A stretch of DNA of 44,928 nucleotides, the filler included, from Streblomastix strix (lineage: Eukaryota), in assembly GCA_008636045.1 (NCBI GenBank). It is 2 parts of 2 records of this genome, joined end to end, with 100 filler letters (N's around TTAATTAATTAA, not from the genome) between each part and the next. Parts side by side here need not be neighbours in the genome. Positions count along the whole stretch, not along the records: positions 1 to 22,416 come from SNRW01000323.1; positions 22,517 to 44,928 come from SNRW01000324.1. One strand, given 5' to 3'. Below, piece by piece: positions 3,051-34,389 of this stretch (its first letter is position 1; every line of letters starts with the position of its first letter). The position numbers and the translations under genes were made by a program. The notes beneath the pieces were generated by a model, which did not search any database, had not been told where the DNA came from, and saw only the letters and a program-made list of their open reading frames with translations.

Positions 3051-3932
3051 GGTAATGAAATATTAAGAAGAGTATAAGCTGTTGAGCAAGATAATAAGGT
3101 GTTGAATCAATTTTGTAAGATAGTTATGAACGCTAGTTATGGATCTGATGGTATGAATACCTAGAAATTTAGTAATTTGAAATTAAAATCAAAGGCTGAC
3201 ACATTTATTACTCAATAGACTGGTAATTTTATGAGCTAAAGATATTTAAGTGATAATCTATATGCCGCATAAGTAAATGCAGATAAACATAAGTGCATAA
3301 CCCCATTATAAAAAGCTTATTTTGCACCAGATAACGCCAGGTATTGGTATTTTATTTTTATATATAATTTTTTTAGTAAGTGTTTGGATAAAAATAGGTT
3401 TCATTTTATCGAAGGTGATACGGACTCTATGTACTTTGCAGTAGCTGGAGATATTAATTAGTGAATTAATTAAGGATTTAACTACATCATAACTGATTAG
3501 TAATTTTATGATACTATTTACAAATATTATTTTCCTACAAATAACGATTTAAAAGAATAGAAGAAATTATTAAGCCAAACAATCGAAAGGCAAGGTGATA
3601 TAATGATAGCTGTTGCGCCAAAAAATTATTATATTAACACTATCAGTGATGAAATCATTAAATTTAAAAGGGTTAATTATAAATAGAATATTATTATTAT
3701 ATAGAATTTAATTGATTGTATTAATGGTAATATAATGAAGTGTAATACTATGCGATTGGGTTAAAAAGATAGGGTAAAGATAAAATTAGCTCAAACAAAG
3801 AATAGTCTCATTGGAGTACATACTAAAGGTATTATTTTACCTAATAGTTAATTATTAGCTCCGTTTATCTATAAATTACCTGCTAGAGATTATGTAGATC
3901 TTTAACCCACTATAAATGATCCCCCTGAATGA
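3051..3932 (+). pseudogene. polB: Protein-primed family B DNA polymerase, C-terminal fragment
   Basis: FCKIVMNASYGSDGMN (motif B KxxxNxxYG), HFIEGDTDSMYF (motif C) and APKNYY. Clearly homologous to the C-terminal part of the pPolB at 24392-28740. In-frame TGA at 3462; ends with TGA at 3930-3932; the N-terminal part is missing. Confidence 0.92.
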
Positions 3933-4475
3933 AACTATGATTTACGAGCTCGAATAATTGAAGATTTACTGGAAGGAGTTGATTAAGAAGATATTCGATA
4001 TAGCTATAGAATATGCCTGTGAAAATAAGATTTATAATAGATTTTGTCAGCTAGCTTCACTAATTGACTTTTTTTATTTTTCATCGGTAATATAAATGTA
4101 CGGGTCATGTTGTCCATATAATATATATTCACTAGATTATGATGTAATAGTTAATAAAAGCTACGACAGAGGAGATCTACTATCATAATGGGGTAAAAAA
4201 AATTAATATTGAAACGTAATTAATATGAAAATTTCAAAAAGATATATGATGATATTATAGAAATAAGTGAAAAATAACGTATTGGTTTTAATAATAATAG
4301 ACTAAGGAGAATGATTCATGATAACAAATAATGTTTCAATGAATATATATTTTAAATAGAAGTAGCTTAATATGATTATTCGCCACTTCATATATATTAT
4401 ATATGAAAACTAATTTTTGCTATAATTTTCGACTGTAAAAATTTAGATTCTCGATTTTTTTATACTTGGGAAAAT

Positions 4476-4520
4476 TCAAATTTAAAAGAGATGAGCAAAA
4501 AACCTTTTTCAATTTTTTTT
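4476..4520 (+). promoter_or_regulatory. Dispersed intergenic motif, copy 1 (candidate viral terminator/polyA signal)
   Basis: tcaaatttaaaagagatgagcaaaaaacctttttcaattttt; similar to copies at 12911 (+), 16467 (-) and 18582 (-). Confidence 0.3.
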
Positions 4521-4543
4521 GTTAACAAGATAAAAATAACTTT

Positions 4544-6550
4544 TCATCCTGCGGCAATCATATTGCTATTAAACTCTGCGATTATTTCCAAATTTAATAC
4601 TTGGGGCTCAGGATAATCATTAAACATGATTCTAATGACCGAGTCACACAGGAAATGTATCATGGGGGTTTGTCCCACTTACTAACTCATGGGATAACTT
4701 CTACAGCCAATAAATCCAGCTAATGTGTTTTAATTTTCAGGGTGATTAATATCATCATTAATTTTATGAAAATCAACTATATTTATTATTATTTATGTGT
4801 TTAGTATAGTCTATATATTTGTTCTCGCACCAAGTCTAGTACTATTATACACTCGCATAAAAGAATAATCTGTAGCCATTTTCCAAGCCAACATATATTT
4901 ATTCGGATAGTATGTTTAACAGCTTTAGAACCAACAAATATTGTTGTATTATAAAACATATTATCTATTTTATTTATTGCCCCATCATTTTTGCCATAGA
5001 AATATTTCTTATCTTTTATATTTATATTCTCGAAAGTAAGTGAATGTTATAGTTCACTAGATGGAGATATAGTATCTTGATCAATAAATCACTAAAATAT
5101 TGATCCATTTGTCGATTATGTATGTGCTTCGTAAAGGAAAGAAACAACAAGACGCTATTCAATTATAAGGTCAATATTATGAAATAGCATGGCAAAGAAC
5201 CATGTTGGATACTACGGCATCGCAAATAACATGAGTATAGCTTTGATATTAGAAAATGAAATTATACTTTATATTTATCCGCTGGATTGGTCAAAATTAT
5301 TCATAATGTAATTTGCTGATTATGATTTAAGAACTTGAGTAGGAAAATATATTACTTTCTATGCCCTAATCATTTCAATTATCGCACTTTCATTTTTCAT
5401 AGTAAAGTAAAGATTATAGATGGATAAATATTCAAAAAAAGCGTTATTTAATTATTATATACTTATTTTTTGGTTAATTGAATCATCTTCTAGTTCTTTA
5501 CAATTAATCGAACGTACAGAATATTATTTATATTGGACAGTTGTTTCATCTGTAATTAGAAAAATTATATCAGGTTTCTCATGAGGAATCAATATGTAAA
5601 CAAGGTGTTAGTCAAATAAAGATATTTACTTATTTAACTATATTAATTTTAAGTCTAATATGAAGTCGGTCATCCACAGTTATAGATATAAACTGGCATA
5701 ATTTCTAGTGAGCACATGAAACTCATTAAATATTGGGTTCAGCTAATTGAGATCCAATTCTCCGCTAAAAGAAATGGGGTCAGGTATTTTATAATAGTAA
5801 TCATTTGTACTAGCATTAATTTTACTATATGGATATCAATAAATACTCCACAATATCGTTTTCCCTAAGTTATACTTTCTAATGGTGATAAAGTAACTGA
5901 ATTATTAACGTTAAGGCCAGATAAAGAATTGGAATAAATAATAGCTTATTCACGAGCAAAAATAGATGTCTCCCAAAGCTTTGCATTATCTTTACATATA
6001 ACCACTAATTAAAAAGGTCCACAAGTTGTTGAGAATCCGAGCCAAAATTTGAGTATTTCACAACTGTGATAATTTTATGTCTCTTAATTAATCTATCTAT
6101 CTACAGGTAATGGTGCAGCTGCTGTCTTTGTCCCGTTAAAATTAATTACTTAACGAGCATATTCAATATCAGTATTTGCACCTTTAGTCACATTGATGGA
6201 ATTGAGCTAGATACCCAATGTATTAGAGGGTATAGTAATTGTTCAACTAACTTAACATGCTTAAAAACATCAACAAGTAGCAGTACCTCAAGCACCAAGT
6301 GGAGCTCTTGTTTATCTTGTACCAGTAGAAAACAATATATTTACTGGTTAGTCTAAAAATTTATATTTTGATAGAGGTAATGATTATGGCTCAGTTGTAA
6401 GAGTTCACATAATTTCATTAAGAGCGATATTTGAACAAATATAGTTCGAATGTGAGGCTTTTGATAGTCGTGACAAATAATCCTATGCGTTAAAGCTCAG
6501 TTTATTAAACGAAATAACTTTTTAAATTATACGTTTTAAATTTTATTCAT
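4544..6550 (-). pseudogene. Large (~650 aa) viral structural-type protein, candidate double jelly-roll major capsid protein (frameshifted)
   Basis: Code-6 translation: WLGFSTTCGPFQLVVICKDNAKLWETSIFAREQA...DLNQLNPIFNEFHVLTRNYASLYLQLW...FAMPQYPTWFF...YPNKYMLAWKMATD...MIHFLCDSVIRIMFNDYPEPQVLNLEIIAEFNSNMIAAG*. Size, beta-rich character and context fit an MCP; the fold is inferred, not shown. Confidence 0.55.
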
Positions 6551-6570
6551 TTTTTTTATCTAGAAAATAA

Positions 6571-7131
6571 ATAACAAAGTTAAATGAATGGGAGATATTA
6601 ACTGATAATAATAACTATGAAATATTAACTGAAGATCCACATATTATAAAAAGAATTGAAGATTAATATATACCGAAAATAACATTCAATAAAACATGTA
6701 GATATAATTAAATTAAATTAAATGGAAAACCTTATAGATATCGTAGAGATATTGCAATACAATTTATACCGTACCCAAATATTTTGCCTGAAATTGATCA
6801 CATTAATCATATTAGAACTGATAATAGGATAAAAAATTTGTGATGGTATAATAATTCAGAAAATTAAAGAAATAAAGAAAGCAATAAGTATATTTATATA
6901 TATTTTGAAAAATTACCCGAAGGCAATTAGCTTCTTATTTTATTTAATGGTAATGATTTAGAAGGATATAGTTTCGACTAATAACATGATGTATATTTTC
7001 ACAACGGGCTAAAATTCAGGAAACTTCATGTCAATTATAATCGTAATTATTAATATGATATTTGTTAAGATATTACAGCAAAGCAAACTAAAGTTTATTT
7101 AGGCAAATTAATGAATTGGAATTATGAATGA
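6571..7131 (+). pseudogene. HNH endonuclease (HNH_3/phage-type)
   Basis: IAIQFIPYPNILPEIDHINHIRTDNRIKNL*WYNNSENQRN. Single frame with an in-frame TGA at 6841 and terminal TGA at 7129-7131; no ATG at the expected start. Confidence 0.85.
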
Positions 7132-7164
7132 TTCGCTTTATGAAAATTATTTTTAAACTAATAA

Positions 7165-7368
7165 TTGGGTTTCAAGTCAAATTTTAAAGTTTTTTTGTTC
7201 AAAAGTATTAAATGGAGTTACTTCTGCCGCATAATAAGTCGCGCCAGTTCTTCTTAAAGTTATAGGGCTGTTTTAGGTCCATTAGATGTAATAAATCCAA
7301 CAGCAGGTATGATTGCGAGAGGAGTTGGTGGAGCAGCTGGTATGACAAACAAGTTTCTTAATCGATGA
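7165..7368 (+). pseudogene. Small amphipathic Gly/Ala-rich viral protein (homologue of 34109-34315)
   Basis: (L)GFKSNFKVFCSKVLNGVTSAAQQVAPVLLKVIG/VLGPLDVINPTAGMIARGVGGAAGMTNKFLNR* with one frameshift. Aligns end to end with the ORF at 34109-34315. Confidence 0.75.
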
Positions 7369-9340: not shown

Positions 9341-9371
9341 TTAATAATCTAGAAATTTCTATTTTAATTAA

Positions 9372-10440
9372 ATGAAACTTGGAGTAGAACATAATTAATT
9401 GAGACTATTTAAAAGTAAGAAATAAATGAAAGAACTAACTGATACCTCTAGTTAATAAACATTATAGTATGTAGATAATTTAATCGCTAAAGGTGTCACC
9501 AATGAATCAAACAAACCGAATGAATCAGTTATTACATCATTTAGAAATTATTAACAACGATAATTTAATAAAAATAAATACATTGATGCTGATCATACTA
9601 CAACTTAAGTTACCTCATAAGAAGTATTGGATAAATTATCATAACCAACAATTGAAATATTACCGACAAAATCGGCAGCGGAATATGCTCCTTAACCAAA
9701 TATTATACCACAAACAATATAAACAAATGTTACAGATAATCATTTGAACGCTTATTTATCACATCCAAATTTAGAAGTTTTGAAATCCATTATTGATAGT
9801 ATTTGGAGAACAGTTACTCATAGAAATAAAGGTGATGAATTTATATTGTAGAGTGATAACTTCAATAAATTTTAGTCAGTAGTTATCTAAGAAAAAGAAG
9901 ATGATATAGAAGTAGTATTAGAGGAAAGTATAATTGCTACTCACTCTTGTTTAAGTAAATAATATAAGTAGAAGGAAGTAGTTTGAGTTATTTATGTTCT
10001 GATAAAAATGTGTCGATTAATATGTAGGATAATATGCTTTGGAATATTTTGGAGAAATTATATAGAATAAATAAAGATCTAGTTGGACTATCTGATGATC
10101 CATCATAAGATATAGATCCAAATTAATTTTGAAGCTTATGAAATATATATGAAAAAGGCTTTTTGCACTTCTGTTTTAAAATTGGTGATAGCCGAAATTC
10201 GGTTGATCACCCCAAAATTAATGTTGTACTATATATTGTGTGGTGGTGAAATCTATGGACACTCTCTAATAAAAGAACAAGTTGCCAATTATTATTTTTT
10301 ACCATCAATTTAAATGGATGATTTAAAATTACCAATGGAAGAGTAAACGTAAGCAATGAAAGATGAGATAACTAAAGTATTATAGAAATAAATTAAGTAA
10401 AAAAAATTCGAGTAATTATAAGATAAATTAACCCCCCATA
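9372..10440 (+). pseudogene. Hypothetical viral protein(s)
   Basis: Long code-6 frames (IAKGVTNESNKPNESVITSFRNY...NAYLSHPNLEVLKSIIDSIWRTVTHRNKGDEF...) with frameshifts. No known motif. Confidence 0.35.
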
Positions 10441-10499
10441 TCGAGCGTATTATTTATAAATATTTTACTTATTTTTGCTAATATTATCGATCTAAACAG

Positions 10500-11010
10500 T
10501 GTTAATGTAAGCCATTTGATCCCACAGGATTAGTTACAATAAACACTTAATAAGATATAATTAGTAAAAAAATAATCGATTAATTTTAAAAAAAATGATG
10601 GCACTACAAAATAATTGTTACTTGCTAATGGTGATACAACTGATATAGGTGATTTTAACCCAAATAGTCTCGTCATACGATGGGGTAATTGATTATCGAA
10701 CTGAGAGATAGTATATTATATTATGAGATCAGGATAATGAAAATAAAGCGAATTGGGATAGTTTTGTAATTACTGGCTGTATTATTGACTCTACAAATAA
10801 AAATGGAGTATGGAAAGTTGGATTTACTTTATCATAATTTAGAATAAAAAAAATAATAAGATTAAGCATGTGATTAGAAGGGTTTAATTATTGATTTCGA
10901 TTATACAATATTAAAATTCAATAACTAAATTATTGCACCAATTATCACAAAAAGTGGAACCTTTCTTGCAGGAGATTATGTAGTTGGACAGAGTTAGGAC
11001 TCATTAGTCA
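10500..11010 (+). pseudogene. Fibre-like protein fragment
   Basis: DGTTKQLLLANGDTTDIGD (same KxG...LxANGD motif as the other two fibre genes) and NWDSFVITGCIIDSTNKNGVWKVGF. Confidence 0.55.
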
Positions 11011-11444
11011 ATAACAGTATAAATGGAAACACTTTTGGTCATCATTGATTGGTAGCTATTTAATTTATACCTACTGATGATTATAATAATTATGTTGATC
11101 ATATAAATCAAAATAGATTTGATAACTCACTTAACAATCTGAGATAGTTAACACGAAGTGATAACTGCCTGAATAGAACAAAACCAATACGATAACATAT
11201 ATCCTACATATCTAGATATATTATTTATTGATAATATTGAGCTAAGCAAATACGACGACACAAATTTGAAAGATTATATTTTTCTTCTAGCGAAGATATG
11301 TTCCATATATCATATGGTAGATAATATAAAGAGTTATATATTAATGTGAAATTAAATGGTGCATTGTTTGTGTATGCCCCTGATATTCGGGGTAAGAGTC
11401 ATTAAATTCATTACATAAGAGCAAAACGAATAATGAAAATTTGA
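11011..11444 (+). pseudogene. HNH endonuclease (5'-truncated)
   Basis: INGNTFGHH*LVAIQFIPTDDYNNYVDHINQNRFDNSLNNLRQLTRSDNCLNR; TGA at 11046; ends at 11442-11444. Confidence 0.8.
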
Positions 11445-11479
11445 TATAATATTTTTGGATATAACTGACTACATAAGCT

Positions 11480-12891
11480 ATGTAAATACTATAATCATTC
11501 TCGGATTAAGAATTTGTCTAATAGAAAACAAATATCTCATAAGGATATAATTAGTTCTAAGTAAATAGTATATATAACGTTACTATAAATTTTTGTTATT
11601 ATTTGAACAAGGACTAAATAGAAATTAAAACGAATATCAAGTCAACTATTAATAATATGTAAATAACGTTATAAGATTAAATATAAGATGGTTTCAAATT
11701 ATCTCCTGTATATGAACTCCCACCAATTAGAATTAAAATGAACACAAATATCAACAATAATTATGTCGATAACGAGATAAATGAATCATATAAATATATG
11801 TCATAAAACTATGTGCTCAAAAATAGTGAAATAAATAATTTTCAAGATAGCTAAAAATAATACTTTCTTTAATTCGATATAATTAAAGGTGGACCAATAA
11901 GCTTCAATTAATCATACAACGAACATACACAAAAGTTAGATAATTACTATATAATATCATAAAATAGAGGTATCGATATTTGTTCTACTGCTATTAAAAC
12001 GTTAATTTGAGATTAAATTCTTTTCTTTATCATTATTGGATATAAGTTACTTAGTTGGCGATAGCTTATCTAATGATTAGTCAAATTAAAATATATTGTC
12101 CTATAACACATAATAATATCACTACTGTTTAGCTACTACTCATATGTTTTAAAATTAAATATAATTCAGGCCAACAAATTGCGCTAATAAGTAATGAGCT
12201 AATTATTACGGAATAATAACCTATCAATGTATAGAGTCAAAGTATGTAATTAGCGATTAATTAGATCAATACATTTCCTGTCAGGCTAAAATTTTCATTA
12301 CCTGCGTTATCATTAACAGAATGGTAATATATTATTACTAGTGTATAGAGAATATCTGATCTTGGTTAATTAATACCATAAGTATTAGATGAATTTTATG
12401 AAAAATAATTTGATGTTCCGAATAAAGTGTTATAAATAGAGCTGACAAATAATATATATATTTAGATAACTAACACTAGTGATCTATATGTAGAACCATT
12501 AGTAGATAATCATTTTAAATAAATGGCATAAGATACATGGTATTATAAAGTGAAATATAACAACGACGAGTAGAATTAAAATTAAGCTATATTTTCACCT
12601 TTTATTAAAAATTTTATGGAGCATGCATTAATGTTAATTATAATAGTAAATAATTATTAGAGGGATATAGTACAACAAGTCTAGGATAACGCTGCTTTCA
12701 ATAATGTCGTATTTAAAAAAAATTAGATCGGAGCACCAGTAATATGGGGATAGAATATGTTATCTAATTCAATTATTATAGATATGATTAAAGAAATTGT
12801 GTTTAAATTATATGATAATATGGGTAGATAAGTTCCTGTACAATAAATCGATACGTATAATAATTTATTATTAGAAATATAATACTAGTGA
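11480..12891 (+). pseudogene. Candidate minor capsid (penton) protein
   Basis: C-terminus IGAPVIWGQNMLSNSIIIDMIKEIVFKLYDNMGRQVPVQQIDTYNNLLLEIQYQ*. The FxLYDxxGR ending resembles the L.D..G end of Polinton/PLV pentons. Homologous to 22517-23970. Confidence 0.5.
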
Positions 12892-12910
12892 GTACTGCGA
12901 AAATTCGCGG

Positions 12911-14869: not shown

Positions 14870-15960
14870 AAAAATTACTTTTTGTATTTATCTTCGAGTT
14901 AGTTGATATCAATAGCTATAAATTTAGCGTAATAGGATGGTATTTCTATTTGGTCAATATCTTTATATGGCTTCAATAATTTACACACACCATTTCCATG
15001 ATTATAGCGAATTAAGGTAGCCAACTAATTAAATTATTTACGTTACTTATCAAATTAGTGTTTTGTTTTAGCTAAGTCAAGATGAATCATTATAATATTA
15101 CCTACATTTAAATTTAGCAACCTCTCTTTTCGTTATAATCAAATTTTTACATTCAACTTCTTATTATTTTTATCGAATATAACTTGCTTCTAATTCACGT
15201 GAATTATTAACTTATTAGGGTGTATATTTATTATTAAAAGCAGCAAGTTTTAATTGATTATGCTCGTTTGCTACTTATTATATTATATGATTAGTAACCT
15301 GCTAATTAATTAGCCTATTTCTTACATTACCAATAATACTATCGACTACTCAATTTTAATTTGGCAAATGGAGACTTATTATAGAAATGTTATATTTTAT
15401 GGATTTTAGCAAGGTTTTTATTTAGTTTCTTACAAATGATGATTCACTATTTGATCAATTATTTGTTATGTACTTGGATTATATTAGCTACTCTAGAACT
15501 GGGATTAGTGATTATATCTCTTTTGTGTGAATAGGATAAATAATAAGAAACATTGTATTAACGTTGATAATAAATAGGAATAACAACAGTTTGAAGAAAG
15601 CTATTTCCATTTCCCTTAATCTTAATTGAGGTGAAAAATTTGGACGTTAATATTTCGTTAATGATTTGAGTTAATAGTCTTTGATGTTTTCATTAGGTTA
15701 GTATTATCGTTAATAATATTATACTCTTTTGAGTCTAAGAATCTCCGATTATTATTTTTTCACTATGCTTTTACTTCTATATATTTATATTATTAAATTA
15801 CTCTACGTATAATTTATAACATTAATCCAAAGATTTACCGTAAAATTAATCGACCTAATTAAAGTATTTATTAAATTAATAATTAATATAGTAAATGAAT
15901 TCTCTTAGCGATAACTTATTAATTTGTCTAAAATTCTTATCCGAAATAATCAATTCCATT
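14870..15960 (-). pseudogene. Retroviral-type (rve) integrase of Polinton, degenerate
   Basis: RPNFSP...FLFIINVNTMFLIIYPI...SESSF...KSPFA/QN*VVDSIIGNVRN...QQVANEHN..AAFNNKYTPQQV..GNIIMIHLD follows the rve core layout, including the YN..H....TP block. Catalytic acidic residues look eroded. Confidence 0.7.
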
Positions 15961-16719: not shown

Positions 16720-18510
16720 TCAAAGAACGTGCCCATTGAAAGTTTATGTGTTTCCATCAGCGGATATCATTAGCCCTAAAATATCATTAAGAAATTAATT
16801 ACCAACACCAATTCCTAAATCGCCAGTAGGTGTATTTACTATACTCTACTAATCGGTTATTGATCCATTAGTTTAATTTGGATTATACCCTAAACAAATT
16901 CCGCTATAAATTGAATCAATAGAACGTGAAAATCTTATTGCTTCATTAAAATTATTACTATTTGGATTAATTTAAACAGCACTTCAAAAAAAACTCCTAC
17001 AAATGTTTTTTTACCTATAATTATTTAATCAGTTCCAACATTCATTAATTAATTACCATTAAATTTTAATTATAATCAATCCATATTAATACATAAACCA
17101 AAACTATAATCAGCATATCTTAGAGACGATGTATTTATTATCAATGCCCTATCACTTGTTTAATTTATTTCCCATTAACCTGTTTATGTAGTATTTATCG
17201 CCGTATTTATAGATGCTAAATATATTGCTGATGATTCGGTTTTATAATTTCCGATTCTAATACAATTATTAAATGTAGTATATGTTCTACCTGTTGGATT
17301 AACTTATTGCATATTAATTATTATTTCACTATCTCCTAAATTATACGAAAATTTGTATTAATATTCCATTTATTACCCCAGAAACCACATTTTATGTAAA
17401 TATTTCAGTGATTCTATTAGTAAAATAAATACTTTAATCAGATCCAACTATTGTAATAGACCCAACTGATTCAAATCTAACATATACTTAAAATATAGCT
17501 GTTGTTTCAGAGCCAGTATGATTATGAAATAACTAATTTTTCCAATTATCAATCTCATAGTATGAACTAACTTTAGTTGGAGCAGTAAATATTCCATGTA
17601 CAGTAGTGATTCCATTAACGGTATAATTAGGCTATAATCAAATGGTTTGAACTGCATTATTCATTGAATATACTTTAAATTCAATGAATGGATTACCAAC
17701 ACTAGCATCTGCAGGAAAACACATAAACGAATATATCCATCAGCAACATTAAAATAAGTTCTTGATAACTTATTATTTAAATAGTTATATCATCATTAGC
17801 TCACAATACTTCAGTTGCTAATCCACCTGTCTTAATAAATTTAGTTACTGTTATATCACCATCATACGTTAATTTATAAAATATGAATATGATCTCCTCT
17901 ACTATACGAAGTACTAATTCCTACATTAGTAGTACCATTACCTATAGTCAATTCATCACTTGCAGGTATTATTTGATCATGTACTAATTACCCACTATCA
18001 TACCAATTATTTCCATATATCCAAACTATACCGCTCTCCGCGATAAAGGCAAAATCACCTGTTGCACTAGTGTTAAAATTAATTATATCACAATTCAATA
18101 AATAATAACCCCTGAAATGAGTTTGTCGAGCTAATTCTTTCTAAATTAAAGTAATTGATTAATTTATATTATTTATATCCTATGATGTTTAGCCCTATTC
18201 TTATTATAGTTAGTTTACCTAATTATTCAATTGGTTAATTTAAGTAATAAAATCGAAGTTAATTACATTGAGATCATGAACAATTAATTAACCATCAGCC
18301 TTTACTTTTAAAGCGAAAGTACTTGCCTATCCTTAATTTATATATTACTTGTCCGCGTAAACAAATTTTGAATCATTATCAATGAAATGTTGATATGAGT
18401 CATTTTATAAAGCAGATAATGAACTATTTTTACTCTTCACATATTATAAATAATACTATTTCTAAGTTGAAATTAATTGATAAATGATAGATATCTATTA
18501 ATTAGAAAGC
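16720..18510 (-). pseudogene. Fibre/receptor-binding-like protein with phage tail-fibre-type motifs
   Basis: QTHFRGYYLLN...GDFAFIAESGIVWIY...GISTSYSRGDHIH..LTYDGDITVTKFIKTGG...GLMISADGNTQTFNGHVL*. Colinear with 32110-34059; contains stops and frameshifts. Confidence 0.7.
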
Positions 18511-18582: not shown

Positions 18583-18653
18583 ATTTACCACAAGTTTGAG
18601 ATTATAGATCATTATTCTGTTTGTGATTATAGATAGATATTTTTTCCCATAGA

Positions 18654-19076: not shown

Positions 19077-19996
19077 ACTATTTATAACTTACCTCTATAG
19101 ATGTAATTTTTTGACTAAAATTTAGCGAACTTGAAGAAAGTATTAGATTCTTCAGAAGAAACTTACAGAAATTTTCAAGGAAATGCAAAAGGGCAAGAAG
19201 GATTAAAGGCAATATATGAAATAAGTAATGAAGAAGATGAGATTAAATCGTTACGACATTCAGTGACTATGATCCAATTACAAATGGCGTTTTCTTGAAA
19301 TATGAAAGAAAGATTTCTTCTTTCAATTTGCAAAACTTCAAACAGGTCTATCAATCAATGAACTTATTTTTAAAGTCATCCATTAATAAAGAATTGATCT
19401 TTCTGAATCAATTTTCAGAATTTAATTTATGAAAAGTAGATTAGAATTATTAGAGAAAGACATTATAACTTTTAAAAGGTTCATATTTGAATGGTGCAAT
19501 TTTAAATAATCGTGAGTGGTAGATGAAAAGTATTTTTTTTATTTTTTGTTATTTTAACAGAATAATATATTAATTCTCTATTTACAATTCAAAATAAAAG
19601 ATTTCCATAAAAACATATTAAATTCATTTTCATGATTTAAAATTCAGTTAAAGAATGAGAAGAACAAGAATTAAGAATAAATAGTGGAAATAATAAAAAC
19701 CAATATTTGCGTAATTTTTCAATTAAGTATTAAAATTCAATCTTAGCAACTTTGAAAATAATCAAAAATCAAAATAATCAAAAAATAGAATTATCATAAA
19801 TTATAAGTAATACTTAATTAAGAATAAACTAATTATAAAATCTAAGAAAAAATTGAAAAATTCAAAAGATTTTCAATAATTTTAATTATAATAAGAATGT
19901 ATTGAAGCTAGAAATCTTATTTAAAAAGTGGAAGGATAATTTATGCATTCAATACGTTAAATTATATTTACATTCTAAGAATCTAGTTAATTACTG

Positions 19997-20448: not shown

Positions 20449-22370
20449 ATGGGTAATATTTCATCAAAAAATTTAATATTTTTTAACATTATTATATATA
20501 GTATGATTTTTCTATCCAATTTATACTTTCATTCAATTAAATGTGGATTATTCAGTACTTATTATAAAATTATCTCTTTCACACTTACATTTATCTTTTT
20601 ATCATTATAATTAATTTTATTATCGGAAATTTAACATTTTACATCTATTAATCTAATTATTTAACATTTGTTATAAATACATTACTTCATTTTATTATTT
20701 ATTATTTTTTTTTGTATCTTTTTGTTATTTTAGAACCTAGCTAAGAAGAATACATTGACAAATGTATGACTCAATTATCAAGATTTTCTCAATATTTTTT
20801 TTATTAGACCATGTCATCAAACGCATTGCCAAAGGAGGATATGGCTAAGCTTATCTTGTTGAAGAAAGAGGAACGAAGAACATAAACGTGATGAAAAGTA
20901 TAAAATTTAGGAACGAATCTTAAAAACAGTAGATAATACATGAGATTGAAATACATAGGGATCTTTACTCACCATTCATAGTAGATTTCGTTGAAGGGTT
21001 TGAGTATTAAAATGATACATGGTATATAATCATGGAGTTTTGTGAAGGTGGAGACCTGGATGATTTTCTTGAAGATCTGAAGAAAATGGGAGCTGAAATT
21101 GATGAAGATGTTTGATATGAATATTTTACCAATTTTACTTAATACATAATAATATTTTCTTTTTATTTTAATTTTAATAATTATTTATTTAATTGTTTAT
21201 TTAATAATAATTTTTCTTAGAGAGCATGGGACTTATTATCGTAGATGATAATGGCTGTTGATTATCTGCATCAGAACAGAATTTTGCACAGGTTTGAATA
21301 TAAAGTAACATTCAAGCTAATTTAATTCATTATTTTCATCTTTTTTTACTAACAGAGATCTTAAGCCAAAAAATGTATTTCTCTCAAGTACATTTGATGT
21401 CCGTCTCGGAGATTTTGGAATTTCGCGTATTTTGGCAGACGATGAAAAATATGCTCGTACATAGATTGGGTCTAAAGCCTACATGTGCCCAGAGCTCATC
21501 GCTTAAAGTAAATTTAATGAATAAGTTTGCATTACATTTGTTTTATCATCTACTTAGAAAAATTATTTTATTATCTAATGATTATAAGTAATACATATAT
21601 CATTAATTTATACTTTGATTGACCATAATATTTAAAGGGCGACGTCTGGGGAATAGGAATAACCATGTATGAACTGTTGACTGGTGTTCTTTTCACTATT
21701 GTCGGTGCTAATTCAGAATAATAAGTCCTTCAGAACGTAGTTAATAACTAAGAGCCGGAGATCACTAGCTATTATTCAGAAGGACTTCGTAATGTGGTTC
21801 ACAAGATGCTGATTAAGGTTTGAAATTAATAAACGAGTTATTATTGAAATTATGTTAACAAATTTTACTTAATAATAAAAATTCGACATTTTTTTTATTT
21901 GATGATTTTATTCAATTTAATTTAGGACTTCCACAAAAGAATTACTATTCTTCTACTGAAGTAAGAACCAGAGGCAAAATAATATTTATTATATAAATTA
22001 GAAAATAAACAATATTCAGAAAACCATGAAATATTCTTAAATTGAATTCATTTGTTATTATTTTTATATTTTTCTATTTAAAATATATTATATTATATCC
22101 TTACAGATCAATAAAAGAATGGTTTTTTACGCAAACGAGTTAATTAAGAGAGGAATTGATTATTATGATGAAAAAGCAAAGTAATATAAATATTTTTATT
22201 TTGGAATATTAATTTTATAATTTAGTTTTGAGTTTTAATTTCATAATTTTTTCATTGTTATTTTTTCTTAATTAATTTATATTATTATTATATTTAGGAA
22301 GTATGTCATGTCAATTGCGAATATGAATAAAGAAACTTCATCTGTTCCACTTCCACGTCCAAAATAAGTT
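20449..22370 (+). CDS. Spliced Ser/Thr protein kinase, NEK-like; 3' end may run into the gap
   Basis: Exons give YHVIKRIAKGGYGQAYLV..VMKSI..IIMEFCEGGDL | RAWDLLSQMIMAVDYLHQNRILHR | DLKPKNVFL..RLGDFGISRIL..TQIGSKAYMCPE | GDVWGIGITMYELLTG..GLRNVVHKMLIK, with GT-AG introns (e.g. 20764-20807, 21292-21355). TAA/TAG fall at Gln positions. The start (ATG G|gt at 20449) is tentative. Confidence 0.92.
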
Positions 22371-22416: not shown

Positions 22417-22516
22417 NNNNNNNNNNNNNNNNNNNNNNNNNNNNNNNNNNNNNNNNNNNNTTAATTAATTAANNNNNNNNNNNNNNNNNNNNNNNNNNNN
22501 NNNNNNNNNNNNNNNN
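22417..22516. other. Artificial contig-join linker N44-TTAATTAATTAA-N44
   Basis: Exactly 100 nt and symmetric; the central 12-mer gives TAA in all six frames, typical of a concatenation spacer. Confidence 0.95.
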
Positions 22517-23970
22517 ATTGTCTTATAAATTATTAGCTCTGATTCAGATGAGGACTTCGTTTCGTGAAAGACAACAATACCTAGCGGCTATAATTCCTTT
22601 TAAGTGAATTGCATAAATAATATACCGATAAATTTAACCTATTATTTGAACAGTGATTATATAGAAATTCAACACAATAACATTTCAACTCCCAATAGAA
22701 AAATTTATTATAAAACTGAATACGGAAATAATACCTTTTCACTTACAGCTCTAACAGAGCTTCCAGCTATCTGAGTGAATTAAAATACGTCTATCAATAA
22801 TTCATATGTTGATGATTAAGATAATTAAGGATATGACTATGTTCCGTAATTGCTTGCTCTTTAAAGCACATAATTTAATAATTTAACAGATGGATAAGAA
22901 AAATATTTCAAGCAATAAAGAACAACAAATCGAGGCGCATTCTGCTTCAATAATCCCCAGAATGCACGCACATAAAAATTTTCAAATAATTAATTTTCAT
23001 TAAATACAAATTACGGGTAGGATATAGTAAGTTCTGCAGTGAATTATATAAATTTAAGAATTAACGCGATTCTTTATCATTATTGGATAAAGGATTACAG
23101 TACTGGCACCGCTTATAGAGCTATTAGTTTGATTCGTTTATATTGTCCAACTACAAATAATTTTATAACTTCGGTTGAGCCTCTAGCACCTAACGTTTTA
23201 TCAGTTCGTTATTTATTTGGTAAGTTAATAAATATTAGTTCAAAGGGCGCCATAACAAAATCAGATGATTAACCTATAGACGTTTAGTAATAGACAACGC
23301 AATAAATAATCAATAATATAAATACGTTTCCCATAAGAATAATATGCTCTCTTCCTGCGATCACCACTCAAGAATAGACGGATATTTATGCCGCTGTTGG
23401 AAGGGCTGGCTTCTATGGGTAATTCATCGCTTACGTTGTTAGCGAATGATCATCAGTTGAGCGTAGTAATTTGTTCGCTAAAAAAATAATATTATCACCA
23501 AATTTATATGTTTAACTCGTTGGCGCCTTAGATTTATATCATGGAATAAATGAAAATAAAGCCAATTAATTAGTTAATTTTGCATCGTCAATAAAACAGA
23601 TTGATTTGGAGACATGGTTTTATAAGACCAAATTTTAAGCTGATAGTTTGATTCCTGATATACCAATATTTTGCCCATTTATTGGTAATTTTATTGAATA
23701 TCCCCAGATATTAATAATATGCGTAAATAATTAATTGAAAGGAATAACGATGGAGACGGTCGGAGGTAATGGTTTTAATAATGTATGCTTCTAATAGAAC
23801 TTGGTAGATGCTCCTGTTTTATGGGGTTAGAACATGATGTCTTAAGAATATTTAATAGGATATAATAAATCAGTAGTATTTACATTATACAATAACTTTG
23901 GCCGAAAGATACCTACATAATATTGTGATATGTATAATGACTGACTATGAGAAATTTAATATTAACAAAT
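22517..23970 (+). pseudogene. Candidate minor capsid (penton) protein, 5'-truncated
   Basis: C-terminus LVDAPVLWGQNMMSQEYLIGYNKSVVFTLYNNFGRKIPTQYCDMYND*L*EIQY; homologous to 11480-12891. Confidence 0.5.
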
Positions 23971-24391: not shown

Positions 24392-27300
24392 ATGCCATAC
24401 TTAAAGAAAAGCGAAATCATCAAATAATTAGGTTCAAATGTTAAAAGCAAATTAAAAAAAAATTAACTAAAACAATTGCTCGACCAATAACTAGATTCTT
24501 TTAATATCCCCAAACGTAGAAAGAATAATTTTAATACACTAAATAAATTCATTAATGCCCAAAATAAACGAATTGAACAGGAGCAAGAAATCCAAAGGTG
24601 TTTTCTCAATGAGACAAAATAATTTACTAAGCCAGTTAATTTCTAAGAGACAAAAAAAAAGCTTTCGTTTTACCATAGCTTTATATTGACATGATATAGA
24701 ATGAAGAGATTAGCGATAAAATTAATAAATATAGTAATGAATAGGTCAATGAAATATAAAATGATTTCTCTGACACTTTACTTTATTTCTAACCTGTTGA
24801 TATTGATAAATTTATCGAAACAGCTGATAGAGCAAGTTAAGACTATTAGTTTTAGAAAGACATAGATGGAGATATTAGCAGCACATATTATAATAATTTG
24901 ATTTATTATTTAGAAGAGATAAATAAATTTATTGACTCAGTATATGAAAAACAGAATCATAAACCATTTAAAATTACCTTTGATTTTGGAGTTATTTATG
25001 AGGAGCAAAACACGGACAAAAATGGGCATTTATCAACACCATATGATTATATTTTACCCCATGAAGCAAGAACATAAAAGCATATTCCCAAATCGATAAT
25101 CACAGAACAAGATATCGATTAATACAAAGAATACATTAAATCTGAAATAATAGAGATGCAGAACTTTAATTTGGATAGTACAAAACAGCGATTTATTTCC
25201 ATTTATTCGATGATGATTAAAACGTTTACCCTTCACCAGTTTCGCATAGGCAGTAACATCGTGGAACTGATAGACTTTCATCTGTTGGGCCATAAGAACT
25301 ATTTGAGTATGATAAGATGCAAATATAATATATGCTCGTTTAAGCTTACAATTTATTTAAATAACCTGATATAAGTGATAAAAGAATCAGAGAACATTCA
25401 CGTGAACACATGACAAAGGAGTATATGATGAAATATTATAAAATATCCACTGAAAAGCAATTATAAAATTGGCTTTAAGATTATCGAGGATTCGATATTG
25501 GTTCAGAGATTGATAAGTTCATTAAAGATGAAAAAATTAATATAAATATATGATTATGATACTTAGCTAAAAATATATTATCAATCAAAGGCATATAAAT
25601 TTAATAAAGAAGCACAGGATGAATCTAGCGATGAATCCGAAAATGAACCTGTCAGCTTTCCCGAGTTTAACTTATTAATTTCCTTGTTTGAATAAATGGA
25701 AACCCATGCCTTTTATATCTCGAATAAAGAAACCTTAACTGGATTAAGATTTTGCCCCTTCTGTAAATCAAAAGTATTCGACCCTAAAGAGCATCATTTC
25801 GTAGAACAATATGAGAAGCACATCAAGAAATGCGAAATTAACGAAGGAAAGATAATAAAGGAGGTTAAACTGGAAGCCGTTCAAAGGCCATTTTGTCCGC
25901 ATATAATGCAGAACGAAACATACTAATTTCTGTTAGCAAATAATAGAGAGAACGAATTTAAACCCACGAGCTACTATATCATTTATGATTTTGAAACAAT
26001 GGAGAAAGTAATCAATAAACATTTTGGCAAATCAAGCATACAGATTTCATAATTGGTACCCATTTCTGTGGCCTCAACAATTAAAAATAAATAAGATATA
26101 AAAACGATTTATTTTGACTTGAAAAATTGTGCAGATTTTATTAATTAATGGCTCAAATAAATATTCAAAGAAACGAAATTAATATAAATTGATGATCTTT
26201 ATAAACATTCACATATACCATATGACGTTGAAGTTCCCATCGTTGGATTCAATAGCACGAAGTTCGATTTTGCATTAATATTTAAAAATCTTTAATCGTA
26301 AGACTGGGAAATTAAAAGATATATTGGCAGTTCATCATAAGCTAAATCTTTCATTGTCTTACATAAGCATTCATAAATCAAATTGACTTTCTGCGATATT
26401 ATGGTCTATGTTCAAGCGATGACATTGAAGGAATATGCAAAAAATTTCTCTATATAGGCAGGCGATTAGACGAAGGCAGCGCAAGCCAAGGGTATGTTCC
26501 CATATGAATATATTAACACTGATAATTTTAATGATGTTCTCAATAGTAGCGAGCCATTCCTCCAAGAGGCCTTCAATTCAACATTAAAGAACTCATCAAT
26601 GAGCGAAGACGAATATAAAATTTATTTAGGGGATGCAAAATAATTTAAAAATAGATGGGAATATCTACAGTATTATAACGAGCATATTACAAAAATTATG
26701 ATAGTACCAATAGATAATTTAATATAAATGAATCTGGAGTATAAAATTGATATGTTTAGCTTTATGTATATGGGCGCATTTGCAAACGCTATCAAATATG
26801 CATTAGCTTATAAAAACTTTTATATAAATGCTAATTATCCCCCTATTATTGACAACTCTTATAAGTTCGTTTTATATCCCTCTTATTGGAAGTATAAAGT
26901 AAATGGTTATAGATTCCAAGACCAAATTAAAAAGCGTGATTATTCAAATAACGTATCAGTTAATGACTTCGAATGTTTTAAGCAATTACTCGAATCCTCT
27001 GTTTGCGCCATTTGCGGCGAAAAATTTACAGTGAATAATAAGCCAACACTCGATCGAATCAATAATAATTTTTCGCTTATTAAAGGTAATGTATAACCGT
27101 GCTGCCTCTATTGCAATAAATACTGTTCAAATAAAGATAAAAATATCAGCTGATTATTTATTTAACTTCGCAGGTATTGCATGCTGAATTGTCTCCTCAC
27201 CAATTTAACTAATATTGAAGATTATAAACTGATCCGTAATGGAATAACTGGCGGCTTATCTGATGTAATGCAAAGAGAAAATATAGCTTTAAAAGACGCA

Positions 27301-28740
27301 ATAAAATAATTCAATTATGATTCCATTAATAAGAAAGTTCATGTTCAAACGTCATCTAATATAATTTCTCATATCGTCGGTGTAGATTTCAATTCCTTAT
27401 ATTCAAGCGTTATTTCATCCGAGCAGCATAAATTTATAAAATATACTTGAGGAAAAATGTACATGGCAGAAAGCATATAGGGAAGAACAGAAGATAAACA
27501 AAAGGTAATGGACATAATAGGGGGAAGAGATTAATTATTCATCGCAGAAATTAAGGGGCATATAGACGAAAAATATATTAATGATTTTATTAATTTCCCA
27601 CCTATTTTAAGAAACTATACATTTACAACTAATGAGGAAACCATTGGGTCCTATATTTATAATCATTTGAAAAATAATGGAATTAAAACAGATAAAAAAT
27701 AAAGAAAATTGACCAATTTATTATCGACGAGCGGTGGAACCGCTGGCCCTAAAGGGCTGGACGAATTTATGTCCTTCAGCTCGTACTATTTATGGTTCTT
27801 GATTGATGACTGCCATTTTATTGTTGATGATGTAAAACAATTAATTTTATTTAATAAGCATGATTGATTAAATCCATTCGTAAAGTAATTCATAAGCAAG
27901 AGAATAAAGGCAAAAATTTAAGCAAATAAAGGACTAGAATTATTTTGTAAAATAACGATGAACTCGTCATATAGTTCCGATGGAATGAACACAGAGATAT
28001 ATACAGAGATAAAAATACATGATAAGAAAGGAGCATTAAATTCTCATTTATCGAATACTTTTATGGATGAGCAATAATTGTCTGATAATGCATACGCTGT
28101 ATAATTAAACCCTGAGACCTGCACATGTAAGACCCCAATTTAGGAAGCGTATTTTGTGTAGGATAATGCCAAATATCATTACGTAAATTTCATATATAAT
28201 TTTATGCATAAAGCTTTTGATATGACGAAACTCCACTTCGTGGAAGGCGATACTGATTCGGCTTATTGGGCTATTTCAGGAAACGCTGACGCAGGATATT
28301 TATATTAATTTAACTATGCATTTAAAGATAAATAATTTTATGATGAAAATGCAAAATATTATTTTCCAACAATTGAAGGGGATTTATTAGACGAGAAGAA
28401 AATATTAGGTTTAGCTATCGAAAATTAAGGAACCGAAATAATAGCATTAGCTCCTAAGAATTATTATATAAAAGTTGGTGAAAAGGAAAAGATAAAATTG
28501 AAAGGTAAATCATAAAGCACAGATCATATTACAAAATAGAATATCATCAATAATATATATAGTGGAACGATAACAAAAGCGATAAATATGAGACTAGAGC
28601 AAAAAAATTATATTATGTCAAAAATAGCTATACAAAAGAACAGAATCACTGATATCCACATTAAGGCTATAGAATTAATGGATTAAAGTTCTTGTCCTTA
28701 TATTCACCGATTAAAAGATAGAGATTACTTTATTGATTGA
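24392..28740 (+). pseudogene. polB: Full-length protein-primed family B DNA polymerase (Polinton type), disrupted
   Basis: ExoI YIIYDFETME, ExoII VGFNSTKFDF, KGMFPYEY, IRNGITGGLS, motif A GVDFNSLYSS, motif B CKITMNSSY, motif C EGDTDS, and APKNYY. Ends with TGA at 28738-28740. In-frame TGAs at 27151, ~27448 and ~27865, plus N-terminal frameshifts. Confidence 0.95.
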
Positions 28741-28907: not shown

Positions 28908-29479
28908 TCAAAATGGAATATCGTATAATTTCTTAAATTTATTAAGATAAGTTGAACGTTATTTATTGCATGTATCATACACTTTAATATATAATGAACC
29001 AGTTCGTTTATCTTCATTTATATGAAGCTATTTATACTTTAGGCCGTTGTAGCAATAAAAGCTGCCGTTATCGAAATATAAAAATTCAAATTCATTTTGC
29101 CCATATTTATTAAAAACAATTGCATCATCTGATAACTTATCTATATTATTATATCATATTTCGCCATAGTGTGATTTATTTTTTAAATTTTCTGAATTGG
29201 ATATCCATCTCAAATTATCTAAACTGTTATTTAAAGGATTATGGTCCCAATGGTCAATATATAGTAAATTACCAGGATTAAGAATGAATTATTAAGCTAA
29301 TAATCAATGAAATAATTATTTTTTCCGTTTAAATTAATTAGATTGTACCCAGTATTTTCTTTAAATAATTTTGGGATAAATTGGTCACTTTTTCGGCGAA
29401 TTACAAAAGGCTCATCTTTCATAATTTCAAATTCGTTATCAATAAAAATTATTTCCCAATCGTTTAATTCTTATGACAT
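28908..29479 (-). pseudogene. HNH endonuclease
   Basis: MSQELNDWEII...LNG/LFH*LLAQQFILNPGNLLYIDHWDHNPLNNSLDNLRWISNSEN; paralogous to 6571-7131. Confidence 0.85.
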
Positions 29480-29509
29480 ATTTTTATACCGCTAAAAAAA
29501 ATAAAAAAA

Positions 29510-30582
29510 AAAGTTGTTCTTAAATCCTTTATTGATTTATTGCATTAACGGGTACGTGGGAATCCCCACGGACTGGATTTCATAAAGACCGAGCCACTTG
29601 TTCGGGACTACAAATTCATATTTGTTAAGTGTGTTATATAATAATTACAATTCTTCAAAATCTAAACCTTATATACTATTTTCCTCGTAAATTTGTTTTA
29701 AATCACTCACGCCCAGATTAACACCTAAACAAATGACATGCGATAATATCCTCGCAGTCTTAAATAAATAACTGGGCCGTTAAGCTGCAAAAAATATTGT
29801 ACTCTTTGAATGTCTTGAATCACTAATCTTGAGCGTTAATGTTTTAGATAATGACGAACTAAAACGTTATATATCAGCATTTGAGCCAATATTATCAAAT
29901 AACATTATCGTATTCAATAGCTGAGCATCTTTTTGAATAGGAATTTTTAACAATTTTATATTTGCTATTTATTTATCGTTAGTAACTTTCAATTTCTTTT
30001 GAAACGAAACATTTTAAATAAGGGGGCGGAATTTTAAATCGAAGTATTTCAAAAGTTATGAATATTTATTAACGGTCTCGATTATTGTCGATTAAAATAA
30101 TTCGGCAATTTTTTCGATATATTTATCTGGTTTGTCTTCCCTTTTTATTGGATTTGCTTCTATTATTTTCTCTTTCATTCGTTTAAAAAAATCGCTATTG
30201 TAATCAAAATTTTGTTCCTTTAGCTTATAATAAATATATATTTCTTTTGTTGAATATTTAATCTCATCAAATTCAGGCAAAAAAACCATAGCTTCGCCAT
30301 ATGTTATATTCACGATTTATATATTTTTGCTGTTCAAATTTAGCATCATTGTTTCATCCGCTCCAAAATTAGAGAAATAAATTATGTATGGGTCAATAAT
30401 TTTTTTATACGTAAAAATCAGCTTGGACATAAGCGTTGTTTTACCTGAGCCAATAGCTCCAACAATATAATGGTTACTGTTGATGAAGAACAATGAATTT
30501 TTCGTAAGTGGCCGCGTTTTGTATTCGTTTAATAAATCTTGGTTCGCGTAATATATATATTTTGTAAATCTGAAAGTGTCAT
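29510..30582 (-). CDS. A32/FtsK-like genome-packaging ATPase
   Basis: Walker A YIVGAIGSGKTT, Walker B-like IMLFDN, Arg finger DSRH and sensor TIFFAAQ. May be frameshifted near the start and in the middle. Confidence 0.88.
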
Positions 30583-30822
30583 TTTTACAAGGATAAAATA
30601 TTTCAAAAATTCCAATGGAATAACATTTTGAATTTGATTATGACCATCATGAACTATATATTTTATTACATAAATTTCGTTTTATCTATCCTATCTATAA
30701 CCTTCCCTGATAAATTAACGGATACAGTTAATTTAGTCAAATAATTATGGGTATATTTGGATATAGTATTGGAACCCTTGAATATTACAATTTATATAAT
30801 AAAATTTTTTTATAGAAGAAAA

Positions 30823-31401
30823 ATGGATAAGAAAGAGAAGGTCATTCATTGGAGCAAACTAATGACAAAATAAATAGAATAATATTTATAGGATGCTATA
30901 CAATAAAAGGATGCCGAATTAGCTGTGCATTTCTGTTATATTTTATATTTGATATTACTGAATTCTCCACTGATAAATAATAAGTTTGATTTTAGTATTT
31001 TTGATTTTTTTATCTTATATAAAACGACTAATCAATTTGAGAAACTCGAATTTTAATTAAGTCAAGACCAAGTTAAGATAGATGGACAACTAATAGAGCA
31101 AATCAACAGAATATAATCAAATGAACTCCGCTTATGGAACTTGTAATTTTATCAATTAACCAAAGCCAAAAATAGCGATTATACATATTATAGAAAATTA
31201 AAATAGTATGTGAAATATAACGAAAAATATATATTTGTTAATGATATAAATAATATTAAATAGAAAATAAGCATAAAACAAATCATATAATCGAATCATA
31301 AAAGGAAACCAATCAACGAAACCATTAACGGATACAGCCTCGAAGAGGCCAGCCAAAGGCTCAACGAAACCAAAACTGAAGAAGAATAATGCGGGATATG
31401 A
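30823..31401 (+). CDS. Hypothetical viral protein (~192 aa, code 6)
   Basis: Open from ATG to TGA: MDKKEKVIHWSKLMTKQIEQYLQDAIQQKDAELAVHFCYILY...GYSLEEASQRLNETKTEEEQCGI*. Confidence 0.55.
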
Positions 31402-31427
31402 AAAATATTTATTTTTATTTTATATAA

Positions 31428-32109: not shown

Positions 32110-34059
32110 TCATGTAAGAACTGACCCTAATGTTATTGGCTTTGCACGCCAATATATTTTTGGCCCATCGCTATAAAATCCCCCTTCTGTGCATATACTA
32201 TTTACACCCGATAATATCGGATTTCCTGCTGAATAATTAACTGACCCATTAGTTGCTCCAGTGCCAGCGATAACGGAACCTTTAAATGTTAATGTATTTC
32301 CATCGGCGGATATCACTAATCCTCTATTAGCATTATCAGCATCAGCATTTAAACAAATTTTTAATCCTAGGTTTGCATTAGATGTATAAATTTTCCACTA
32401 ATTTACAATAGTACCAGTTGTTGCTGTAGCACTAGTACCTAAATATATTCCACTATTTCCTTATGCTGCTGACCTTGCAATTCGTAATCCATATGCATAT
32501 CCAGTATTATATGCAGGATTAATTTAAAATGGTGCATTAGTTATTGTTTCAGTATTATATTATAAATTTGGCTATTAATCTTATTTTGTTGTGAAATCAC
32601 TTGGTAAAGTATCTATAATTTAATTAGTTAGCATATCAGAAACTACAGGAGACCCATATATTATTTGGGTTAATAAATCAATTCTTCCTTGATTACCTTA
32701 ATAATCTCCAACAGTCATCCATAATTCTCCATATTAATTTTCACCCGAACCATAATATAAAATTGTCGGCAATCTAAATGATGCATGATTTATTTATTAC
32801 AAGTAATGATATGTTATTGAATTAAATCCTGTAGTATCAAAACTAATATGTAATTTAAGCCCATTGAAACTACTCCTTGAATAAAATTTAAATTCCACAG
32901 TAGTATCTCCATAACTATTATAAGCTTAAAATCTATATAATTTTATATATTTTGCTGTAGCTCCAACATCTTTTGGAAAATTTTATGATTTGATACCGTT
33001 TAAGTTTGTTGTATCTCCATTAACGCATAATATTACCGTAGCCAATTCTCCCGTCTTAATAAATTTAGTCGCTGTAATGTTTCCGTCATATGCCAATAAT
33101 TGAGGATGAACATGTTCATTTCTACAGTAATAATCACTCATTCCATTAGCGGCAGCAGTAGCAATTACCAGTGGCACAATTGCCACAGTCGGATCAACAT
33201 TAAGAGGATGAGCATGATTTGACCTCGCACAATAATTAAAATTTCCAATATCTTCCCATGTACCTGTATCTTTTTGGGGTTAATTGGCTACATCTGGATC
33301 TGTGTTCAAAATATGCTAGTGGTCAGCTCTAGAGTATGCTGTTGATGTGCCCGCTACTCCTGTTCCCGTATCTCTAGATGGTATTTATTCGTTGACTTAT
33401 AGCGGATGCTAATGGTCCCCTCTGTTGTAATCATTTTAAATTCTAGCAACATCTGCGCCACTATCTGCCATTGGTGTATTATCACTAGCGGGAGAAACTT
33501 AATTAAAAACTACTTATCAGCTATTGTACTAATTAGTATCATACATCCATACGGTCCCACTCTCGGCACTGAATGCAAAATATCCCACTGCGGAATTTGA
33601 TATTGAAATTATACCTGCGTTCAATAAATAATATCCCCTAAAATGTTATTATCGATTAAACTCTTATTAAAAAGTTATTATGTCATTTTTTACACCAATA
33701 ATATCGCAATTAATCGATCCGACAGTAGATTATAATTAATTTACTTCGTTAATTAATTGAATAATTTAAGCGACGAAATCAAAATTTAGAACTTTTAAAT
33801 TCTTTATCGTCAACAGGTCATTAGGCTATATTTTTAATGCAAAATCTGATGCTTGGCGATCAATGATTTAAATATTGGCTGCAAAAACTAAAGCGTTATC
33901 TTTATCTATAAACAATTAATAATCTTTATTTTAAAGCATGCCGCCTGTTGAATTTCCTTCACGTTTCGAATACTGGATATAATAAGCTAAATAATTAGTG
34001 ATTAATTATCAAACTGTTCGAATTTACTATTATTAAAGAATTGGATTATTTTTTTGCAT
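32110..34059 (-). pseudogene. Fibre/receptor-binding-like protein with four RxxHxH repeats
   Basis: QQHFRGYYLLN..FAFSAESGTVWMY..YNRGDHQHP..YSRADHQHI..CARSNHAHP..YCRNEHVHP..YDGNITATKFIKTG..NRGLVISADGNTLTFKGSVIAGTGATNGSVNYSAGNPIL..GGFYSDGPKIYWRAKPITLGSVLT*. Confidence 0.75.
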
Positions 34060-34108
34060 TTTAATTTCGCAAAAATAAATTATTTAATGGAATACATAAA
34101 CGCAAACC

Positions 34109-34315
34109 TCAGCATTTACTTACAAGCCTATCAACGGCTCCCGCAAGATTAGCACTTGCCCCAATTGCTCCACCAGTGCCTGGATGAATCATTCCTACGG
34201 GGCCCGCTACCGTACTTAATACTTTATGGAGAGTTGGCGCTATCCACTGAGCAGCATGTTTTACTTCCCCTAAAATTTTCGACCCAAAATTTATAATTTT
34301 CGAAGAAAACCACAT
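34109..34315 (-). CDS. Small (68 aa) amphipathic viral protein
   Basis: Intact ORF ending in TGA: MWFSSKIINFGSKILGEVKHAAQWIAPTLHKVLSTVAGPVGMIHPGTGGAIGASANLAGAVDRLVSKC. Two homologues in element A. Confidence 0.8.
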   Translation of the reverse strand: MWFSSKIINFGSKILGEVKHAAQWIAPTLHKVLSTVAGPVGMIHPGTGGAIGASANLAGAVDRLVSKC

Positions 34316-34389
34316 ATTTAATAATTATATAAAAAATAAAATTCATTAAATAATTTTGTTCTTTATCAATTTATTTTTTACTTAATCTG

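Follow-up and report, generated by a model that had tools for sequence, protein, structure and literature searches.

The window analysed here, a stretch of 44,928 nucleotides of the genome of the termite-gut protist Streblomastix strix (assembly GCA_008636045.1; GC content ~26%), contains two decayed, likely Polinton-like remnants that we designate element A (~3.0–18.6 kb) and element B (~22.5–34.3 kb). Translation with genetic code table 6 yields 193 open reading frames (ORFs) of at least 80 amino acids across the window compared with 6 under table 11, and the latter code recovers 2 such ORFs inside positions 3051–34330. The claim of the initial annotation that standard-code ORF calling loses nearly everything in this region is borne out by these counts. 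Homologs have glutamine opposite in-frame TAA or TAG at 41 of 52 positions, a proportion that is partly circular because the homologs were annotated with the host code. Genes of both elements are pseudogenised as assembled, gene order differs between A and B, and neither element in its assembled form could yield virions. A host protein kinase gene with introns (20762..21900, plus strand, end approximate; Pfam Pkinase E 2e-15) lies between them, its catalytic motifs distributed across exons; this position of an intron-bearing host gene is best read as marking two insertions. Further downstream, a piece of a host Brix-domain gene (42751–43173, minus strand; Pfam E 3e-5) fits a eukaryotic flank.

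Element B encodes a family-B DNA polymerase in a single frame of 1375 codons (24613..28740, plus strand; probable start near 24392) that is interrupted by six TGA stops. The motifs YDFET, GFNSTKFD, DFNSLY, MNSSYS, GDTDS, and KNYYI follow one another in this order, and we take them to be the exonuclease and polymerase motifs of such enzymes. The B polymerase is 53–72% identical to P0120 and has no Pfam match; searches of the PDB and of phages with the polymerase returned nothing. Its sequence motifs and genomic context suggest that it is likely protein-primed. A terminal-protein/vOTU layout is described in the accessible text of PMC11161782. The region at ~26890–27250 (plus strand) contains an inserted zinc domain of the endonuclease-VII/HNH type (PHROG 1035, E 3e-8). 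Of the polymerase gene, element A retains just the 3' end (3036..3932, plus strand; 5'-truncated, with one in-frame TGA). This remnant, which corresponds to the last ~300 codons and includes the GDTDS motif, is 43–48% identical to the B polymerase and matches NCBIfam DNA polymerase II over the PolB motif with an E-value of 0.002, far under the cut-off.

The A32-like packaging ATPase of element B occupies an open frame (29552..30580, minus strand) that is 69% identical to P0087. The alignment of ATPase homologs shows conservation of Walker A and of the A32-type motifs; Walker B reads DN in B and DD in 12 of 13 homologs. P0087 exceeds the Pox_A32 cut-off (25.5 bits, cut-off 22.8), P0121 does likewise, and 4 of the 14 aligned ATPase rows match Pox_A32 at E ≤ 0.01; the window copy on its own has no Pfam match. 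All 34 ATPase homologs, found among 1352 candidates, are S. strix genes. Judged by these motifs and family matches, B encodes a predicted A32-like packaging ATPase, which is one criterion for Polinton-like viruses (PLVs) in the broad sense.

Element A contains a candidate for the major capsid protein of ~650 amino acids (4544..6500, minus strand), the gene for which is broken by two frameshifts and five stops. The candidate is 74–76% identical to an intact 652-amino acid protein, P0001, over its entire length. All 86 capsid homologs found among 1100 candidates are S. strix genes; some homologs are named “Major capsid protein” in UniRef, which is a label only. A termite gut metagenome, one of the three runs listed, contains 0.82 of the capsid’s words and may be the source sample; no RNA run appears in that listing. 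The origin of the capsid and ATPase homologs agrees with S. strix, or a close relative, as the host. Comparison of language-model features in the Atlas placed the capsid at 0.96 to a Capsid_N/Capsid_NCLDV cluster, with 200 of 256 features in common, and at 0.95 to a Sputnik-type capsid cluster, values to be read against a background in which one in 100 shuffled proteins scores as high as 0.95. By these features, the candidate likely resembles double-jelly-roll capsids. None of 49 capsid members matched a Pfam capsid family, and capsid profiles searched against Pfam and PDB sequences gave nothing relevant. A structural model built from 49 homologs reached a pLDDT of 45.6, and Foldseek searches with this low-confidence model listed 53 PDB rows and 500 viral rows, none of which reached E ≤ 0.001. 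The first eight PDB rows, all non-significant, belong to capsids or scaffolds of the double-jelly-roll type, namely PBCV-1 capsid, adenovirus hexon, and vaccinia D13; the top five viral rows, also non-significant, comprise two hexons, two pithovirus capsids, and an adomavirus LO7 protein. The best VIA match, an EhV-201 capsid protein (Z 5.0), was tied with unrelated folds and did not rise above background.

Both elements carry a penton-like candidate. The A copy (11477..12891, plus strand) encodes ~470 amino acids with one frameshift and is 41–42% identical to the B copy (22520..23968, plus strand), which forms one frame with five TGA stops. The filler at this junction (22417–22516), which consists of two 44-N runs around a 12-base AT-only palindrome, hides the start of the B gene. 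We found no homolog of the penton-like gene beyond the A and B copies, and its structural model (pLDDT 29) was too poor for a fold search; the penton identity of the two genes is an unproven lead. Fibre-like genes are likewise present in both elements. A long one in A (16723..18509, minus strand) has several breaks and is 37–69% identical to P0138 and P0119, and a second, shorter one (10320..10952, plus strand) is frameshifted and is 32–42% identical to P0137, P0139, P0141, P0142, and P0144–P0146. The long fibre-like gene of B (32110..34038, minus strand) contains one TGA, is 38–51% identical to P0138, P0146, P0166, and P0179, and has an architecture of a coiled coil, His-containing repeats, and a beta-rich end. 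P0144, a relative of the shorter gene, matches PHROG 972 (tail fibre) weakly at E 0.006, and the named Atlas matches of P0138 are phage fibre families at 0.78–0.80, which serve as leads only. Searches of Pfam, PHROG, phage records, and PDB produced no sequence match to the fibre-like protein. Architecture and these weak leads are consistent with a fibre, an identity that we regard as unproven. A small amphipathic-looking gene is frameshifted in A (7160..7365, plus strand, end approximate; 51% identical to the B copy) and intact in B (34112..34318, minus strand), where it encodes 68 amino acids and is 82% identical over 39 amino acids to the start of P0103.

Three of 30 scanned frames, two in A and one in B, passed the Pfam HNH_3 cut-off of 24.8 bits. 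These free-standing HNH endonuclease genes lie at 6577..7114 (plus strand; 30.2 bits, PHROG 99 E 3e-12) and 11043..11280 (plus strand; core only, 27.4 bits) in A and, in frameshifted form, at 28935..29480 (minus strand; 27.9 bits) in B. They are likely selfish homing nucleases. A frame at 15023..15682 (minus strand) in A is likely a decayed rve-type integrase core. Its sole Pfam match is rve_3, which is sub-threshold (E 0.017, 15.3 bits compared with a cut-off of 26.5); we presume that the motifs in this frame are those of rve, and nothing was found for it in PDB, PHROG, NCBIfam, phages, or plasmids. Family scans and a motif search of these two incomplete, decayed copies recognised no Adenain/Ulp1 cysteine protease. 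An ORF of 253 amino acids in B (30640..31401, plus strand) has no family match, the scans being negative.

Direct comparison of the two elements reveals that they are related yet divergent, as the initial annotation had proposed for the polymerase, penton-like, fibre, HNH, and small genes. DNA identity is ~60%, a six-frame self-comparison gives 32–51% amino acid identity in coding frames, and the larger proteins common to A and B are 41–48% identical. Individual tblastn alignments show 48% identity for the polymerase (A 3060–3452, B 27892–28284; E 6e-41), 41% for the penton-like protein (A 12001–12888, B 23048–23965; E 8e-58), 48% for the fibre-like protein (A 18509–17868, B 34038–33391; E 3e-46), 32–47% for the HNH genes, and 51% for the small gene (A 7160–7264, B 34318–34217). 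The capsid candidate is present in A only and the ATPase in B only, within this window. The integrase-like frame was also said to be confined to A, and this distribution holds: tblastn of A against B found no second copy of it in the window. The best explanation of these observations is that the two elements come from different subfamilies, each element having lost different parts after insertion.

We found no inverted repeat pair in the window that bounds A or B. A 433-bp inverted repeat (18649..19081) lies just beyond the A fibre-like gene, with arms of 105 nucleotides (91%) and 132 nucleotides (87%); it is a candidate MITE or element end, with no target duplication seen. Five kilobases past B is a 212-bp element (39395–39606) with terminal inverted repeats that match at 24 of 25 positions, an (AGT)2 start, and an (ACT)2 end. 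Four of six bases match in its flanks, no other copies of it occur in the window, and its end pattern gave 0 matches in metagenome contigs. According to the accessible text of PMC8097293, (AGT)2//(ACT)2 is the canonical Maverick end motif, and the 212-bp element is likely a non-autonomous mini-Maverick.

Linkage of these genes elsewhere in S. strix was assessed by matching locus tags and contig sizes by eye in 89 NCBI records of the ATPase cluster and 163 of the capsid cluster, a sample limited by an incomplete list of capsid genes and by short contigs. A listed capsid gene lies two to three tags from the ATPase on 3 of the 24 ATPase-bearing contigs longer than 6 kb (tags 014148/014150, 013094/013096, and 006461/006464). 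Chimeric gene models join the ATPase to A-type and B-type fibre-like genes, the polymerase, and the small gene, and others join capsid and HNH genes. Public S. strix models such as P0064, P0094, P0120, P0146, and P0179 fuse viral genes that are in fact separate, presenting them as chimeric host proteins. The co-occurrence of capsid and ATPase on three other contigs suggests that the parts list likely belongs to one family. The near-complete parts list that the initial annotation drew from A and B is supported for the capsid, ATPase, fibre-like, and polymerase genes, which are connected by tags and chimeric models in other S. strix copies; among these copies, no record provides a link from the integrase to capsid or ATPase.

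The capsid family is broad. Near-full-length capsid proteins (n = 41) form 11 clusters at 80% identity, 7 of which have two or more members; pairwise identities range from 48 to 98%, and some pairs are nearly identical. A capsid profile search of 1.84 billion representatives returned 209 matches, the best 150 of which were inspected. Among the matches listed are ten long proteins that are 24–30% identical to the S. strix family (P0282, P0304, P0338, P0346, P0350, P0355, P0358, P0361, P0381, and P0402); they originate from Logan, ENA, JGI, or NCBI and lack informative names. Three of them, P0338, P0350, and P0355, reside on metagenomic contigs of up to 20,640, 20,667, and 21,847 bases; a genome of 20–22 kb is typical of PLVs. 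In a quick tree of 29 rows, which has long branches, a branch with support of 100 separates the 17 S. strix rows from the others. Scans for related loci did not confirm a relative in viral contigs, metagenome contigs, or prokaryote genomes.

Considered together, these results lead us to conclude, with a probability of roughly 0.8, that A and B are two separate, broken remnants of a likely Polinton-like family that is present in many copies in S. strix and uses the host code (TAA/TAG = Gln). Its ~650-amino acid capsid is likely distinct from the trichomonad-like capsids of ~550 amino acids for which S. strix loci have been counted before. Decay, truncation, many related copies, the A32-like ATPase, the HNH genes, and capsid and ATPase on common contigs were seen directly, and the Polinton-like identity advanced in the initial annotation gains support from the A32 ATPase family, capsid-like features, family-B motifs, and a weak rve match. 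A first alternative, which we consider unlikely, is that the elements simply fall among the 820 capsid loci that Bellas et al. (2023) had recorded in S. strix and represent nothing new. PLVs of S. strix that use the host code (table 6) are already in print in that study (PMC10120064, accessible text), its example capsid bears by eye a faint likeness to the present family, and Atlas clusters from Parabasalia and other Preaxostyla reach 0.96. However, the 820 loci fall into a single cluster, for which Trichomonas capsids served as seeds, in the accessible part of the paper, none of the 9 distinct S. strix capsid IDs visible in its tables is among our 163 capsid records, and 12 IDs of the present family have no capsid row there, in a comparison that covers rows of Tables S1, S3, and S4 and, in Table S5, rows other than those for S. 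strix. In addition, three short motifs of the published example capsid are missing from all 409 proteins collected. These indirect indications speak against membership in MMPC_40, the Metamonada-group cluster of that study with a threshold of at least 25% identity over 30% of length to its capsids. The ~650-amino acid capsids are likely a second S. strix family outside the published count. Among non-subscription papers, we found no other relevant literature on Streblomastix Polintons or capsids, and S. strix is absent from the accessible text of 10.64898/2026.10.13.758929.

A second alternative, which we judge improbable, holds that the family is an intragenomic transposon that no longer makes particles and for which the capsid and fibre-like genes are passengers. 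The death of both A and B and the fragmentary state of many database copies speak in its favor. Against it, full-length capsids of ~630–660 amino acids persist in at least seven multi-member subfamilies that are 48–98% alike, which suggests selection on the capsid, and capsid relatives occur on 20–22 kb metagenomic contigs. It is very hard to sustain the idea that A and B derive from a single element by rearrangement, or are chance neighbours from unrelated elements: their contents are complementary, A having the capsid and integrase genes and B the ATPase gene, and termini were not found, but five gene families are duplicated across them at ~60% DNA identity, the host kinase stands between them, and A-type and B-type genes are linked in other copies.

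By analogy with known Polintons and PLVs, an intact member of the multicopy family would have a linear genome copied by the protein-primed polymerase and integrated by the rve integrase at inverted-repeat ends. The ATPase would pack this DNA into a double-jelly-roll capsid, penton and fibres would serve attachment, and the small amphipathic protein might have a role in membrane entry. The window itself provides fossil evidence only, and its value lies in the family to which it points. A second S. strix capsid family, if true, would lift the viral share of the genome over the published count, and the metagenomic relatives on genome-sized contigs could be used to place the group and to search for its hosts. 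A more ambitious proposal, to which we assign somewhat less than an even chance, is that the family represents an uncounted, deep-branching PLV lineage with a ~650-amino acid capsid, many endogenous copies in at least seven subfamilies in the oxymonad, and extant metagenomic relatives of ~20–22 kb. It would carry two fibre genes and lack a protease, and the nuclease within its polymerase would mean that the HNH insert of oomycetes and nematodes also occurs in metamonads. Such a lineage would help to place the Metamonada PLVs, which are described as still ungrouped for lack of related genomes (10.64898/2026.06.19.733378, accessible text).

Several of these features have precedents. A and B are dead copies of a known kind of element, in a host for which PLVs are already published and with accessories ordinary for PLVs. 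What stands out is the likely second capsid lineage, which may be new and has metagenomic relatives on contigs of genome size, together with the polymerase nuclease insert and the canonical-ended mini-element. Animal Maverick-Polintons (Polintoviricetes) have in common with A and B the polymerase, the likely rve integrase, the A32 ATPase, and the likely capsid; their (AGT)2//(ACT)2 ends appear here on the nearby mini-element. A and B differ from them in having no recognised cysteine protease, in carrying fibre-like and free-standing HNH genes, and in their variable gene order. The accessories are therefore unusual against animal Polintons, as the initial annotation stated, but not against protist PLVs. 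Phage-like fibres, HNH genes, and protease rarity are described for PLVs in the accessible text of PMC12220804 and for PgVV in that of 10.1101/2022.07.28.501842, and 10.64898/2026.06.19.733378 restricts the core protease among major PLV groups to the Gossevirus group, as far as its accessible text extends. Accordingly, we reject the view that the presence of fibres or HNH genes, or the lack of a protease, is novel in itself. Gezel-14T/PgVV and cryptophyte PLVs, in the text available for them, combine phage-like fibres with homing nucleases among structural genes and mostly lack a protease, as here; they differ in that the fibre-like protein of A and B is the one without a sequence match in the databases searched.

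The closest comparison in likely host, use of table 6, and high copy number is with the Metamonada PLVs and Maverick-Polintons of PMC10120064, the capsids of which are, in the visible portion of that paper, also highly divergent and recognisable only by structure-like methods. Those trichomonad-like capsids measure ~550 amino acids compared with ~650 here and share no IDs with the present family among the visible ones; no trichomonad-type protein occurs among the best 150 of the 209 capsid profile matches. Finally, pPolB2 Polintons of oomycetes and nematodes contain a nuclease domain inside the polymerase, as does B; pPolB2 is abundant in Metamonada. The HNH insert of pPolB2 is called unique to oomycetes and nematodes in the accessible text of 10.1101/2023.08.22.554363, and the insert of B is likened to it by nuclease type.
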